A stretch of 64,000 nucleotides of DNA from a phage: assembly GCA_031520405.1 (NCBI GenBank), contig GCA_031520405.1_4842.1; one strand, 5' to 3'. The translations under genes and the position numbers were made by a program. Below the pieces are notes generated by a model, which did no database searches, was not told the DNA's origin, and was given only the letters and a program-made list of their open reading frames with translations. Position 1 is the stretch's first letter, and every line of letters begins with the position of its first letter. Shown here one piece after another: positions 23,597 through 35,710 of the stretch.

Positions 23597-24832
23597 TCAG
23601 CGCTTCAACAAAGACATGAGGTTTACACTGGTCGACTTCGGATTGTCCTCTATCTTTCGGACGGGCATTTTCAGATTAGTGTAAACCTCAGATGGTTCCC
23701 AACGCGTACCCTGCTGCAGGTGCCATATATGTAGAGGAACACCCGTCTCAAAGAACACAGGCATCTTCCACTTCTGGACGCCAGGAACGTGCCCTGTAGG
23801 AGCTTTTTCGCACAACAGGGTATCTGGTAGCCAGAGGGAACGGGCTTCCCAGAGAGGCGCACAGGAGTATTCAGGCCAAATACGCTCCATATAATCGATC
23901 TCGTCCCATGTACGCTCGGCGTCCCACCCGATGTAACGGGTATTCTTCAGTCGGAAGAATTTCTTCAGCCAACAAGCACCGGAGGTCTCAAAGTTCAGAC
24001 GATTGATAAACGTGATGTGGCCGAACTCTTCAACGCATTCCTGAAATGCTTTCTCAAGGTCGGTTTCGAGTATATCACATTCTTCGTCTGTAATAGGACA
24101 ACCGTTGATCTTTTTCTTCCCGTGCTTGGTCACCCAGTCGTCACGGTTTGACAAGAATGCCGCGCCGTTGCGGTTGGACTCGCTGCCATCGCGGTCACGC
24201 AACATGAAGCCAGGGACGTCTATATCCCATATGTTACCGAAGACCATGTTCAGGGCTTCCAGGAAGTTCCATGCGCTCAGGCGACCGAAGTATTTCCATG
24301 ACATCGCCGTATTCCACAGTTCAGTGAACTGGTCTTCCTTGGTAGTGCATTCCAACATCCAACGAAAAGAATCCATTTGGGTTTTACCACCCAACCAATC
24401 GATATAGGACTGAACGCACGGAATCATCTTCGACTTACGATAACGACAATCTGTATCGAAGCGCATACGATCAAAGTTCAGGTTATACCAATCAGAAAAT
24501 CGCTGAAACTCTTTCGGAGATTGTGGGGGTACAGGAAATTCACTGTAAATTGTCCATGGTCCAATCCCATTATAGCAACAACCCCACAAAAAGGCCATCC
24601 AAATCTTGCGCTCGATCTTCTCGAGCTGTGTGATGCCTTCTGTAACCTCTATGGCATAATCCATCAGACGGACTTGCTGGTTATGCTCTTCAGTGTAGGA
24701 TAGCGCCTCCACCCATGCCTTGAGCAGGTACATGCGATTTTCTGGCTTACGATAATCTACTGCCAGATCAATCGGGTATTTCCATTTTTCAGGGGCTTTA
24801 TATCCCTGCGGCATTTTAGAAATGTGTATCAT
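23597..24832 (-). CDS. hypothetical protein (411 aa)
   Basis: long ORF with no motif I can name; a DNA-modification role is a guess. Confidence 0.45.
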   Translation of the reverse strand: MIHISKMPQGYKAPEKWKYPIDLAVDYRKPENRMYLLKAWVEALSYTEEHNQQVRLMDYAIEVTEGITQLEKIERKIWMAFLWGCCYNGIGPWTIYSEFPVPPQSPKEFQRFSDWYNLNFDRMRFDTDCRYRKSKMIPCVQSYIDWLGGKTQMDSFRWMLECTTKEDQFTELWNTAMSWKYFGRLSAWNFLEALNMVFGNIWDIDVPGFMLRDRDGSESNRNGAAFLSNRDDWVTKHGKKKINGCPITDEECDILETDLEKAFQECVEEFGHITFINRLNFETSGACWLKKFFRLKNTRYIGWDAERTWDEIDYMERIWPEYSCAPLWEARSLWLPDTLLCEKAPTGHVPGVQKWKMPVFFETGVPLHIWHLQQGTRWEPSEVYTNLKMPVRKIEDNPKSTSVNLMSLLKR

Positions 24833-25014
24833 CCGATTTTACTCCCGAGTTCAACACGGAACGCCAGATAGAAGAAAGTGGCGATCGATACAGGACATAT
24901 CACCAAGAATGGGCGCTGTTGCACCCCTTCTGTGACCATGACGCCGACCAGCGAAACCGTAAAGATAACGAACATCAACATCATGAAGATAAAATCAACC
25001 TGCTTGATTTTCAT
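24829..25014 (-). CDS. small membrane protein
   Basis: 61 aa, two hydrophobic helices. Confidence 0.35.
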   Translation of the reverse strand: MKIKQVDFIFMMLMFVIFTVSLVGVMVTEGVQQRPFLVICPVSIATFFYLAFRVELGSKIG

Positions 25015-25381
25015 CTTTCGCTTCCTCTACAGGAGAAACAACTTCAGGCTCAGCTTCGGGAGCCAGCTGAATTTCTTCGGGGCTTACTACGGGCTGTCCC
25101 AGAGACCAGATAGGCAGGAAACGACGATCATTCGTCACCAACCAAATTTGCTTGGCGGTTTTCGTCTTTTCGGAAATAAAATGCTGGGCATTGACTTGGG
25201 TACGAGCCAAACCCACCTGACGCCAAGAACCGAAATCCTTAGAAGAAGGATTGGTATTCAGTTGAAATTGTGGGACGATTTTATTCTGTTCCGGATAATA
25301 ACGGACAGCGTTAATCATCTTCGCATCACCACGGTAATCAATAGCAACAGCGACAACGTTGCGTGGAATGAGGATTTTCAT
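24995..25381 (-). CDS. hypothetical protein
   Basis: 128-aa ORF. Confidence 0.4.
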   Translation of the reverse strand: MKILIPRNVVAVAIDYRGDAKMINAVRYYPEQNKIVPQFQLNTNPSSKDFGSWRQVGLARTQVNAQHFISEKTKTAKQIWLVTNDRRFLPIWSLGQPVVSPEEIQLAPEAEPEVVSPVEEAKDENQAG

Positions 25382-25382
25382 T

Positions 25383-25586
25383 TTAATTCCTTTTGAAACT
25401 CTGAATTATGTTATAGACGAAAGGCGTTAATAAGATAGCACCCCCCAAATAATATAACGCGTAAACGTTCAATATTTCGGTTGAATCCAACTCAACGATG
25501 CCCAAATATTTCATGACACCGACAAGCACAGCTGTGATACACATCACCAATCCGACGAACACAAAATATTTAGACATCTGTTTCAT
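25383..25586 (-). CDS. small membrane protein
   Basis: 67 aa, hydrophobic. Confidence 0.35.
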   Translation of the reverse strand: MKQMSKYFVFVGLVMCITAVLVGVMKYLGIVELDSTEILNVYALYYLGGAILLTPFVYNIIQSFKRN

Positions 25587-25588
25587 TT

Positions 25589-33507: not shown

Positions 33508-33540
33508 AACAAAGGGGCATTAAGCCCCTTTGTTTATTTC
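33508..33540. terminator. bidirectional terminator between convergent genes
   Basis: hairpin aaaggggc-attaa-gccccttt flanked by A/T runs on both sides. Confidence 0.5.
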
Positions 33541-33992
33541 CCGTCCCAGAAATCGTCATCATCGTCTACGTTGTCAAACGCAGAATCCAATTCTTCGTCA
33601 GAGTACTCTGGAAGACGACCATTCTGTTTCAGATATTCAATTTCGTCATCTTCCAATTGAAGATCCGTGGCTATAAACAGCGCCCCTGTTTCTTCATCGT
33701 GCTCAATACTGTAAGATGTATATTCAGCACCCTGGACTGTAATGATGATAGACGTCGGGTCTTCTGGGTCCACATGGGCTTCAAACGGGATACCGTCAAT
33801 CGGGGCGTCCTCTAAAAATGTAGCAAGAGCTACGGCGGCGCGGACGACGTCTGTCCCTTGCACGGAAGCATAAATCTCTTCAGCGCCTGTTTCCCCGCGC
33901 TCAAAGAATTCAATCGTAGTCCCGTCTTGAACACCAGTCCAGATAGGCATGTCTGCTGGGGAATCCGCTTCAAATAATTTCGAAATTGGCAT
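33534..33992 (-). CDS. highly acidic protein
   Basis: 152 aa, C-terminal DDDDDFWDGK, overall D/E-rich. Confidence 0.45.
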   Translation of the reverse strand: MPISKLFEADSPADMPIWTGVQDGTTIEFFERGETGAEEIYASVQGTDVVRAAVALATFLEDAPIDGIPFEAHVDPEDPTSIIITVQGAEYTSYSIEHDEETGALFIATDLQLEDDEIEYLKQNGRLPEYSDEELDSAFDNVDDDDDFWDGK

Positions 33993-34027
33993 GGTAATGT
34001 CCTCTTGAATAAACCGCTTTGGACTAT

Positions 34028-34477
34028 TTAGGCTTCTCTGGTCGCCAACCCTGGCTTAAACACCACCATTTCCTCAACGTTATCGGCACTCATAGAGGCT
34101 ATGGAATCGAACCCTTTGTTGATAAGTTCTTTCACATTATCATGTATCTTACCAGGCTTTATCCCCAACTCTCGCATTTTATTTTCCCACACCGAAACAT
34201 TGTTGGAATCTATTACAAGAGTCTTCTTGGCCTTGACACGAAATGCCATGACAATAGGTTCACCAGATTGACGATAGCGCACGGCATTTTCTGCGTAGAT
34301 CTGTGCCTTTTCTGGATCCCCTGTCAGGTAAAACCCAGCACCCATCGTACCAGAGTCAGTCTGGCCAAATTTTTCAAAATCAAAGATATCGAATTCAACA
34401 TTAGACCCATGATACAAAACGATATTCGTAAAATCAGGTAACGTTGATTCGCGATAAAATTCTAGAAAGGTTTTCAT
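34028..34477 (-). CDS. possible ADP-ribosyltransferase (diphtheria-toxin-like H-Y-E type)
   Basis: YHGS ... GFYLTGDPEKA ... AFRV resembles exotoxin A/diphtheria toxin catalytic core (recalled from memory). Confidence 0.35.
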   Translation of the reverse strand: MKTFLEFYRESTLPDFTNIVLYHGSNVEFDIFDFEKFGQTDSGTMGAGFYLTGDPEKAQIYAENAVRYRQSGEPIVMAFRVKAKKTLVIDSNNVSVWENKMRELGIKPGKIHDNVKELINKGFDSIASMSADNVEEMVVFKPGLATREA

Positions 34478-34516
34478 AGATACCCCACACTGGTCGTATG
34501 GGGTATTTAGGATGGA

Positions 34517-35710
34517 TTAGCTGGGGACAAACTCATTCACAGGGACATGTTCGGGGATTGATAATTCAGGACAAGCAGCTTTCATCGCTTCCAGATATGG
34601 CTTGCTACCCACGATCCAAAACAATGAGTTCTCATTAAGCAATTCTGGTTTGTGTTCCTGTATCCATGTCATCACCTTCCCTTCATAACGAGGATGCAAC
34701 TCAATATCTCCCCACTGGTAATCCATGAGGTCGTTGTAACGAACCCAATTAGTGGTATGAAGATCCCAATGGTGTACCTCAAAACGAGGAAGCACGATAT
34801 CCGGCTCGTTCTTTGGCCTGATACCACTTAGGAGGCCAGCCAGCGAAACGCTCTTAGAGGCATGCTGGAGATCCTTCTTACCATACACATAGTCTGGGTT
34901 GTCGTGATAGCGACGAGTGAAATCAGTTATGTGAGGGAGGTTTGCTTGCTTACCGATAATGCGCAAACGACTTTCAATGAAATCTAATCGGTTTGGTCCA
35001 ATCCCGATCAGATAGACATTCTTCAGATTTGGTTTCGGATGCATCGCCAAACCTGTCAGGATACTGGTGCATGAATTACAAGAACCAGCAGGAATGATCA
35101 GATCAGTGATATGGTCTGGGATATTGGCAACCTGCTCACCACCCAGCATATGGAATCCAGCAATGCGTTCTGGTGAATGAACGGTATGATCCAATGTAAT
35201 GCCATATTCCAGATAATACGCCTTTGGATTTAATTGTTCAATGAGTTTCTTACAGCGCGGCTGAATGGTGCTATTGTAACCAGATCCAACAAAGTTGAAC
35301 TCACTACCAAACCATGCTGACATTGAAACCATATCATGATTCATGCATGTGGTTGGTTTAGTGGCACCCAGCACAGTGGTTGTCTTGCCGCCGAAATGCC
35401 GTGAGACTGCCGTCGCCATAGGGGACTGCGGACTACCAACTACAGTACCATGGATAAGATCTGGGGATCCTCCAGCTTTCAGATGCTCCATCATGAGCCA
35501 GATGGCCTGACGGAGTTTGCTGCCATTGATCCCTTGCTTGCCATTCATATAGCATGACAAAGGCGCGAAGTAATCTTCACGTTTGAACCAAACCTGCTGA
35601 TTGGTTTCTGGATTGGCAATGAGTTCGCACGGGGTATGTTTGTAGAGATAATCTTCCCAATGAACCAGATCGCGGTTGAGGGAAAGGGTATCGAAGATGG
35701 TTTTGTTCAT
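34517..35710 (-). CDS. PLP-dependent enzyme (fold type II, Trp-synthase-beta-like)
   Basis: GSKLR lysine motif and Gly-rich GTVVGSPQSP loop. Confidence 0.5.
   Translation of the reverse strand: MNKTIFDTLSLNRDLVHWEDYLYKHTPCELIANPETNQQVWFKREDYFAPLSCYMNGKQGINGSKLRQAIWLMMEHLKAGGSPDLIHGTVVGSPQSPMATAVSRHFGGKTTTVLGATKPTTCMNHDMVSMSAWFGSEFNFVGSGYNSTIQPRCKKLIEQLNPKAYYLEYGITLDHTVHSPERIAGFHMLGGEQVANIPDHITDLIIPAGSCNSCTSILTGLAMHPKPNLKNVYLIGIGPNRLDFIESRLRIIGKQANLPHITDFTRRYHDNPDYVYGKKDLQHASKSVSLAGLLSGIRPKNEPDIVLPRFEVHHWDLHTTNWVRYNDLMDYQWGDIELHPRYEGKVMTWIQEHKPELLNENSLFWIVGSKPYLEAMKAACPELSIPEHVPVNEFVPS

Follow-up and report, generated by a model that had tools for sequence, protein, structure and literature searches.

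The window analysed here, 64,000 nucleotides of phage DNA in full (contig GCA_031520405.1_4842.1 of GenBank assembly GCA_031520405.1), is a genome segment of a Kuttervirus (Ackermannviridae, ViI-like). It encodes a P-loop kinase (25589..26494), a 411-residue protein (23597..24832) and an enzyme dependent on pyridoxal phosphate (PLP; 34517..35710), and these three open reading frames (ORFs) very probably represent the post-replicative steps of the pathway to 5-(2-aminoethoxy)methyl-2'-deoxyuridine (5-NeOmdU) known from the phages ViI and CBA120. The gene set, its enzymes and their product are already known, with the window nearly a copy of ViI and CBA120. In addition, the C-termini of the kinase and of the 411-residue transferase share a peptide with the tail of the family B DNA polymerase (PolB), and the PLP enzyme has a copy in an inserted loop. 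This short linear motif is common to four tailoring enzymes and co-varies among them, and PolB shares it in most lineages. By analogy with phage T4, it may mark these enzymes as clients of the sliding clamp, a reading that we favour by a small degree.

Assignment of the three genes to the 5-NeOmdU pathway

The kinase, transferase and PLP genes were confirmed as ORFs with ATG starts on the minus strand, exactly where the initial annotation had placed them, and their alignments to the orthologues of ViI and CBA120 run end to end, so that none of them is truncated. The syntenic genes of ViI (NC_015296; orf00243, orf00247 and orf00226) encode gp243, gp247 and gp226 of Lee et al., and compared with these and with orf243, orf248 and orf228 of CBA120 (Lee et al. 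2018, PMC5889632; Lee et al. 2021, PMC8989533) the window has the same gene order and context at 86-100% identity. The catalytic Cys/Glu/Thr residues, the P-loop and the PLP lysine are conserved, and the same product is expected (5-NeOmdU, ~40% of T). Nothing of substance differs; the deviations are small sequence changes, the linker of the transferase and the annotated N-terminus of gp226. The proposal that the ORFs encode a 5-hydroxymethyldeoxyuridine (5-hmdU) DNA kinase, an aGPT-Pplase-type transferase and a PLP enzyme of a ViI-like pathway is thus upheld by orthology to gp243 (86% identity), gp247 (91%) and gp226 (94%). The three proteins also co-occur in public phage genomes, in 379, 350 and 348 records that show equal counts per genus.

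The chemistry of the pathway has been established with proteins and DNA of the two relatives. Both gp67 and gp243 of ViI phosphorylate 5-hmdU in DNA (PMC8989533, PMC5889632). Purified gp247 transfers L-serine via its side-chain oxygen onto the phosphorylated base, for which a conserved Cys and Glu are essential, and purified gp226, a yellow PLP protein whose proposed Schiff-base lysine is K92, converts O-serinyl-thymidine to 5-NeOmdU (PMC8989533). In CBA120 virion DNA, a 301-Da nucleoside was measured that replaces ~40% of T (PMC5889632).

The 86-100% identity to ViI and CBA120 suggests the same chemistry in the phage studied here. Its DNA would be replicated with 5-hmdU in place of T, for which the genes of a thyA-like dUMP hydroxymethylase, a deoxynucleoside monophosphate (dNMP) kinase and a dUTPase would lie outside the window. 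The kinase (25589-26494) would then move a phosphate from ATP onto the 5-hydroxymethyl group in DNA. Cys287 of the transferase (23597-24832) would attack C6 of the base with elimination of the phosphate, yielding an exocyclic methylene to which the same enzyme would add the hydroxyl of free L-serine to form O-serinyl-thymidine. Finally, the PLP enzyme (34517-35710), with Lys65 as Schiff-base lysine, would strip the carboxylate and leave an aminoethoxy group. The outcome would be modification of ~40% of the thymidines, by which many restriction enzymes would be blocked.

5-hmdU DNA kinase

The kinase (301 residues) is the orthologue of ViI gp243, to which it is 86% identical, and shares 99% identity with the CBA120 protein. 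It matches the Pfam family HMUD2 (PF18747) with an E-value of 2.5e-150 and 500.1 bits (cut-off 25), residues 1-300 aligning on positions 1-298 of the 298 of the profile. The P-loop (Walker A) that had been noticed in it is GTSGVGKGT, located N-terminally at residues 9-17; ViI, CBA120 and the window differ at positions 12-13, with G-x4-G-K retained. As the orthologue of gp243, the enzyme is expected to phosphorylate the 5-hydroxymethyl group of 5-hmdU in DNA.

Serine:DNA transferase

The 411-residue protein had been considered unassigned, which does not hold, since it matches the Pfam family ADDT (amino acid:DNA transferase; PF18724) with an E-value of 1.9e-57 and 195.1 bits (cut-off 26.2). The profile comparison that had been suggested for the gene set thereby supports both assignments, with HMUD2 at 500 bits for the kinase and ADDT at 195 bits for this protein, a putative serine:DNA transferase of the amino acid:DNA transferase family (AADT, formerly aGPT-Pplase2). 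M6 gp51 and PaMx11 gp46 match PF18724 as well. Identity to ViI gp247 is 91% over 411/411 residues (39 positions differ), to the PhaxI protein 100% and to the CBA120 protein 94%. Residues 1-383 are the same as in CBA120 except for T346A, and the rest of the difference falls in a linker of 20 residues, which in the window protein (residues 384-401) is ViI-like and not CBA120-like.

In PaMx11 gp46, the proposed nucleophile for C6 of the base is Cys247, and the metal is held by Glu243 and Thr244 (PMC11472151, PMC13458397). The motif ETSGAC of the window protein (E282/T283/C287, with a one-residue insertion) aligns on these residues (E243/T244/C247) in hhalign, and Pfam profile coordinates and an alignment of six homologues agree. 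E282 and C287 are invariant in the six homologues, down to 23% identity. Two four-sequence MAFFT alignments placed the catalytic cysteine at C341 or A262 instead, and these positions were rejected in favour of the three concordant methods. By pairwise BLASTP, the transferase has no significant alignment to M6 gp51 or PaMx11 gp46. The fold expected of AADT enzymes is glycosylase-like, with a helix-hairpin-helix; a PDB search with a profile of six transferase sequences returned no match, though structures of PaMx11 gp46 and YuA Pplase2 exist.

The choice of donor deserves separate consideration. In the AADT family, two pocket residues can suffice to change it (PMC13458397), and the 39 positions that differ from gp247 leave room for such a change, so that the same enzyme families could in principle build another modification from a donor other than serine. 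This is very unlikely, since residues 269-324, which include the E/T/C motif, are identical to gp247, residues 1-383 match CBA120 at all positions but one, the DNA of CBA120 holds the 301-Da nucleoside, and the decarboxylase is 100% identical to that of CBA120. The identity to CBA120 over residues 1-383 points to use of the side-chain oxygen of L-serine by the window enzyme.

Residues 293-411 of the transferase (window 23597-23950, minus strand) form a C-terminal extension of ~120 residues beyond the Pfam ADDT domain. The extension is kept in homologues from Vibrio phages, mycobacteriophages and Caulobacter phages, with G302, W328, P336, T363 and G364 invariant, and is absent from M6 gp51 and PaMx11 gp46.

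PLP-dependent decarboxylase

The third protein (397 residues) is orthologous to ViI gp226 (94% identity), a PLP-dependent O-serinyl-thymidine decarboxylase, and identical (100%) to the CBA120 protein. Its initial placement among fold-type-II PLP enzymes is supported in part: the Pfam family PALP is matched with an E-value of 1.6e-7, although the score of 31.4 bits lies below the gathering cut-off of 35. ViI gp226 scores 30.7 bits and M6 gp52 39.5 bits against the same family. A profile of the window protein, ViI gp226 and M6 gp52 matches the structure of the 1-aminocyclopropane-1-carboxylate (ACC) deaminase 1f2d, a remote similarity (E 2.8e-6). K65 lies in the conserved S/N-K-L-R segment and corresponds to K92 of ViI. 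The nine orthologues compared, M6 gp52 among them, all have this lysine, and its counterpart in 1f2d is the lysine of GGNKLRK, which we take to be the PLP-binding lysine of ACC deaminases. As in gp226, the reaction catalyzed would be the decarboxylation of O-serinyl-thymidine in DNA.

ViI gp226 (ViI 140538-141812) is annotated with 27 additional residues at the N-terminus. The 397-residue form, as annotated in CBA120 and phage kage, is likely the true product, because an in-frame TAA is located 27 nt upstream and the ATG at 35710 is preceded by the ribosome-binding site AGGAGA.

Extent of the pathway in the window and public annotation

Pfam and PHROG searches covered 36 ORFs of the window, chiefly the larger ones at 800-37000, and found no orthologue of gp67, gp160 or the thyA-like hydroxymethylase; synteny with ViI marks the other ORFs, at 41-64 kb, as structural. 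The corresponding ViI genes are located at 37-39 kb and 87-89 kb, in parts of the genome that the window does not cover, and the missing upstream genes are a limit of the window and not evidence of their absence from the phage.

Several points weigh against assignment to the 5-NeOmdU pathway. The chemistry is known from ViI and CBA120 and is carried over to this phage by sequence, and that the pathway is complete is taken from synteny with these relatives, the upstream genes being outside the window. The PALP score of the decarboxylase is below threshold, and PDB sequence searches with the transferase, the kinase and the PLP enzyme each returned no match. Furthermore, ViI has two active kinases (PMC5889632), and the gp243-type enzyme may be dispensable. 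That the genes instead serve ordinary nucleotide and amino-acid metabolism, as a guanylate kinase, a threonine ammonia-lyase or ACC deaminase and an unrelated hypothetical protein, is what the public labels ('guanylate kinase', 'putative threonine ammonia lyase', 'hypothetical protein'), the label guanylate kinase of PHROG 4409 and the ACC deaminases as closest solved relatives of the PLP enzyme would suggest, yet it is hardly credible and already refuted, as far as is possible from sequence, by orthology to enzymes of known activity: the ViI orthologues act on DNA and not on free metabolites (PMC8989533), an NCBIfam scan gave no model matching any of the three proteins, and homology searches placed neither the HMUD2 kinase with dNMP kinases (no match to these Pfam families at E <= 0.01) nor, beyond the remote similarity to ACC deaminases (E ~1e-6), the PLP enzyme with amino-acid metabolism.

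The assignment is of value for annotation, as most of the 280-380 related GenBank records still read 'hypothetical protein', 'guanylate kinase' or 'threonine ammonia lyase', and all three proteins fall into PHROG families that are unnamed or mislabelled 'guanylate kinase'. Among the RefSeq records of ViI, M6, PaMx11 and CBA120, 'terminase small subunit' is the label of the HMUD1-type kinases (ViI gp67, M6 gp54 and PaMx11 gp49) and 'guanylate kinase' that of the HMUD2-type kinases, with 'hypothetical protein' used in most cases for the transferase and the PLP enzyme.

Related hypermodification systems

A comparable system is found in the Pseudomonas phage M6, with the kinase gp54, the glycine:DNA transferase gp51, the radical SAM isomerase gp53 and the PLP decarboxylase gp52, and in PaMx11 (gp49, gp46, gp47 and gp48). 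As in the window, a kinase, an AADT and a tailoring enzyme act in turn on 5-hmdU DNA, and the ADDT family, the E-T-x-x-C site and a PALP-type decarboxylase are shared. Unlike in the window, the donor is glycine, attached via an N-C bond, as opposed to serine via an O-C bond. The kinase belongs to the HMUD1 type, the transferases lack ~120 residues at the C-terminus, and the PLP enzyme is without the inserted loop.

A further locus was noticed in the Mycobacterium phage Bane2 (KF279413, 785-3462), where gp2 shows a Tet/JBP-like match of 26 bits, below threshold, gp3 is matched by ADDT with 36.8 bits and gp4, annotated 'small terminase', matches P-loop nucleotide kinase 3 with 243 bits. On these matches it appears to be of the T-dioxygenase, kinase and AADT system type described in PMC13229309 (2026).

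A peptide shared with the DNA polymerase

The motif common to the three tails, of which the loop has a copy, can be written as [VS][NS]L[LM]x[LM][LM]. Its reference copy is the C-terminal tail of PolB, RVNLLSMMGKKG (27993-28028, minus strand), and the other copies are encoded on the same strand. The transferase ends in SVNLMSLLKR (residues 402-411; 23600..23629), the kinase in SVSLLGLLSKG (residues 291-301; 25592..25624) after a linker rich in Lys, Ala, Thr and Ser, and the PLP enzyme carries SKSVSLAGLLSGIR internally (residues 285-298; 34817..34858), within a variable insertion that is absent from M6 gp52. The C-terminal ends compared are ...RRVNLLSMMGKKG for PolB, ...KSSVSLLGLLSKG for the kinase and ...KSTSVNLMSLLKR for the transferase. 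The linkers that precede the motif vary in sequence and length, in the kinase and transferase tails as in the PLP loop, and the CBA120 transferase has an entirely different linker with a terminal SVNLMTLLKR kept.

Translating the window in six frames gives 41,545 residues, in which the pattern [VS][NS]L[LMA][SGA][LM][LM] occurs exactly four times, in these four proteins, and the copy in the PLP enzyme is its sole internal occurrence. Residue shuffles gave a mean of 0.045 occurrences with a maximum of 2 in 2000 trials, a statistic that is partly circular, as the 7-mer expression was written after the four sequences had been seen. Because the pattern was post hoc, an unbiased ranking was made in which the last 14 residues of all stop-to-stop frames of at least 60 residues were scored with BLOSUM62 against the PolB tail alone. 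The transferase ranked 2nd and the kinase 3rd of 327 frames of the window. In the whole genome of ViI, ranks 2-5 of 873 were taken by Vi01_049c, gp247, gp243 and gp160, the last of these (87432-88655; aGPT-Pplase1) ending in ...GSVNLLDRLKKPE. The other ViI kinase, gp67 (38203-38865), has no such tail. The shared tail is present in ViI and CBA120 and is not mentioned in the papers on these phages.

The presence of a tail may distinguish the two paralogous kinases gp243 and gp67 functionally. Vi01_049c (ViI NC_015296, 30355-30567; 70 residues) is Cys-rich and probably a zinc ribbon, has its place outside the window, and its tail reads ...DKVNLLSLMRK. VPHD533_0077 of the Vibrio phage D533 (OZ195763, 55591-55890; 99 residues) is 26% identical to it and ends in ...KPKTKRLW.

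Variation of the peptide between lineages

Variants of [SN]Lxx[LM][LMF] are kept by PolB, the kinase and the transferase in five genera with enterobacterial hosts (Kuttervirus, Limestonevirus, Taipeivirus, Miltonvirus and Nezavisimistyvirus). In relatives that infect Vibrio and Aeromonas, the orthologous enzymes carry K-x-[KR][KR]-L-W/F instead, in Vibrio together with PolB and gp33. The transferase tail is ...KTRKLW in Vibrio and ...KTKKLW in Aeromonas, and the kinase tail ...KTKKLW and ...KTKRLW, respectively. In D533, PolB ends in ...KKARKLW, the transferase in ...KTRKLW, the kinase in ...KTKKLW, the gp160 orthologue (45% identity) in ...STKRLW, the Vi01_049c orthologue in ...KTKRLW and the gp33 homologue in ...KTRKLF. 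These six proteins are ranks 1-6 of 733 frames against the D533 PolB tail, in a ranking that used the terminal 7 residues anchored at the C-terminus, and the Vibrio phage 207E48.1 has the same tail pattern.

In the Aeromonas phage TSW001, only 3/1217 frames end in [KR][KR]L[WFIM], namely the kinase, the transferase and the gp160 orthologue (...GTKKLW). The simple rule that the tail of an enzyme always equals that of PolB was abandoned, as it is contradicted by this phage, in which PolB carries a motif of the other type. The kinase orthologue of TSW001 (PV714136) is unannotated and split over two frames across the origin of the record (~144160-144356 and 1-700), by a frameshift or a sequencing error, with the C-terminal frame still ending in ...RKTKRLW.

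Across the eight phages compared, the PLP loop varies together with the tails. It reads SVSLAGLL in Kuttervirus, SVSLLGLL in Taipeivirus, NTNVMHLL in Miltonvirus, KNLLDIMK in Nezavisimistyvirus, KTRRLFGG (longer: KPKTRRLFGG) in Vibrio and NKLWG (longer: HTNKLWG) in Aeromonas phages, and M6 gp52 is without the loop.

Possible tethering to the sliding clamp

In phage T4, the tail of the DNA polymerase gp43 (EKASLDFLFG) binds the gp45 sliding clamp, and DNA ligase does so via the internal, looped-out EPEGLDFLFD, which it does not need for catalysis (PMC6212786). Furthermore, gp33 and gp55 of T4 bind the clamp by C-terminal motifs that are interchangeable and follow divergent linkers (PMC2988020, PMC7892883). 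By this analogy, the hypermodification enzymes of Ackermannviridae (the gp243-type kinase, gp247, gp160 and, via its loop, gp226) may be clients of a gp45-type clamp, which the evidence makes somewhat probable. The copy of the PolB peptide in each enzyme would recruit it to a shared partner, most likely the clamp, and the enzymes would ride on clamps left on new DNA, so that modification would be physically coupled to replication.

The clamp is suggested as the partner since the T4 polymerase tail and ligase loop parallel the tails and the PLP loop found here, since gp33 and gp55 show that clamp-binding motifs can be interchanged on divergent linkers, since ViI, D533 and TSW001 encode a gp45 homologue and a clamp loader (the ViI clamp is Vi01_135c, and the clamp gene is outside the window), and since shared tails are missing from M6 and PaMx11, phages with a family A polymerase and without a gp45-type clamp. 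As in T4, a short hydrophobic C-terminal peptide after a divergent linker, or in an inserted loop, is common to PolB and other DNA enzymes, a form that the kinase tail, the transferase tail and the PLP loop all take, and the enterobacterial motif [SN]Lxx[LM][LMF] is spaced like T4 SLDFLF. Unlike in the window, the named clients of T4 act in replication, ligation and late transcription, with no base-modifying enzyme among them (PMC2988020, PMC6212786, PMC7892883). The motifs described here are not acidic, those of the Vibrio and Aeromonas type being strongly basic. A DNA-modifying enzyme on a replication clamp is familiar from DNMT1, which is recruited to PCNA via a PIP box, so that new DNA is modified behind the fork. 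This is an analogy only, as the proteins, the chemistry and the clamp are unrelated, and no homology is implied.

Certain observations weigh against the clamp as partner. PolB carries the motif of the enzymes in the window, ViI, CBA120, the four other enterobacterial-host genera and two Vibrio phages, and does not in TSW001, where it ends in ...KKVNVLKFFKQKEA. ViI gp33 ends in ...LKSKKLI, which is not of the VNLL type, and ViI gp55 shows neither motif type clearly. From TSW001 PolB and ViI gp33 it follows that either the clamp takes two types of motif or the partner differs. The peptide could accordingly be functional with a partner other than the clamp, holding the four enzymes together in one modification complex or binding a single-stranded DNA-binding protein, a scaffold or another replisome protein. 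This is possible, if rather unlikely: the TSW001 enzymes share ...[KR][KR]LW among themselves, with NKLW in the PLP loop, apart from their polymerase, and gp33, a clamp client in T4, departs from the enzymes in ViI. Against it, PolB has the motif type of the enzymes in the five enterobacterial-host genera and in two Vibrio phages despite motifs that differ completely between these groups, the D533 gp33 homologue carries the motif too, the enterobacterial form resembles the clamp-binding SLDFLF of T4 (PMC6212786), and the shared tails are missing from M6 and PaMx11 together with the gp45-type clamp. That the shared tail is compositional chance or post hoc picking of a pattern, as the shortness of the motifs and the partial circularity of the shuffle statistic might suggest, is very improbable in view of the rankings against the PolB tail alone in the window and in ViI, of the same four orthologues at 2nd-5th of 733 in D533 with a completely different motif, of the three TSW001 frames, all of them enzymes, and of the joint change of the PLP loop.

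No link between hypermodification enzymes and clamp binding was found in the searchable literature, which leaves subscription literature uncovered. The two primary ViI papers never mention a clamp, the replisome or a C-terminal motif (PMC5889632, PMC8989533), and the one paper found to name both the sliding clamp and 5-HMUDK only lists replisome genes. If the peptide is a clamp-binding motif, the pathway described as post-replicative becomes replication-coupled, and phage base-modifying enzymes on a clamp 'toolbelt' would, to our knowledge, be the first known case. Tethering to the clamp would explain why a tailed kinase is kept beside the untailed gp67 and why the motif changes jointly in all enzymes between lineages, and possibly why only ~40% of thymidines are modified. 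It would also open the mechanism and placement of the modification to experiment, and it suggests predictions about a strand or position bias among the modified 40%.

Gene layout around the pathway genes

The 12-kb span (23597-35710) is 98-99% identical at the DNA level to many Kuttervirus genomes, from phages of Salmonella and E. coli O157. A total of 172 public records span at least 80% of its length, and none is identical. Besides the three pathway genes, it holds ~14 further genes that are not pathway members. PolB (27990..30986, minus strand) is recognised by the Pfam families DNA_pol_B_exo1 and DNA_pol_B and by PHROG 262, and between it and the kinase lies a HAD/NT5C-type nucleotidase (26810..27652, minus strand); the initial annotation was correct in placing the three ORFs among replication genes. 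The latter protein is a 5'-deoxyribonucleotidase with an intact motif I (DVDLT), and its position between PolB and the kinase is conserved in Dickeya, Serratia and Erwinia relatives. Speculatively, it could lower dTMP or other dNMPs and so favour incorporation of 5-hmdU.

The genes of the minus-strand block from PolB through the nucleotidase and the kinase to the transferase abut or overlap, and this packing suggests that they are co-transcribed. A terminator-like hairpin with a 16-bp stem followed by a T run (23332..23367, minus strand; from a consensus scan only) lies downstream of the transferase and probably ends the tightly packed block. The small ORFs between the kinase and the transferase were considered as extra parts of the pathway, which is unlikely because the kinase and transferase genes are adjacent in Vibrio phage D533, with the kinase directly upstream, and in Serratia phage phiMAM1. 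A promoter scan gave 28 sites against 24.4 in shuffles, which is no better than the shuffles. Two further terminator-like hairpins, both consensus matches only, are a two-way hairpin AAGGGGCATTAAGCCCCTTT (33511-33531) between the convergent genes 33133-33507 (plus strand) and 33534-33992 (minus strand), and one at 31642-31663 after a plus-strand gene ending at 31638.

Other features of the window

Two more genes on the minus strand encode a MazG-like pyrophosphatase (9976-10554; phrog_1247, no Pfam match) and a QueC-like PP-loop ATPase (2154-2816; phrog_1550, Pfam QueC at 23.9 bits). A 4-kb stretch poor in ORFs (37300-41450) contains tRNA-Ser(GCT), tRNA-Asn(GTT) and tRNA-Met(CAT). A fourth tRNA-like match (37609-37694, minus strand; 48.7 bits) is found with permissive Rfam filters only and is missed by ARAGORN and by default Rfam settings; in the CBA120 annotation, a tRNA-Ile(gat) adjoins the tRNA-Ser. 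T-arm-like fragments of the form GGA[AT]TCGAACC occur at 37442-37469, 40350-40366 and 40745-40772, and several hairpins of 22-25 nt at 39335-40696. The tailspike and tail-fibre block (42400-61271, plus strand) is mosaic in comparison with other Kutterviruses. Its best record is the E. coli O157:H7 phage vB_EcoM_JN03, with 92% coverage at 98.7% identity, and CBA120 and SFP10 reach 77% coverage; JN03 is the only record that covers >80% of 42-64 kb.

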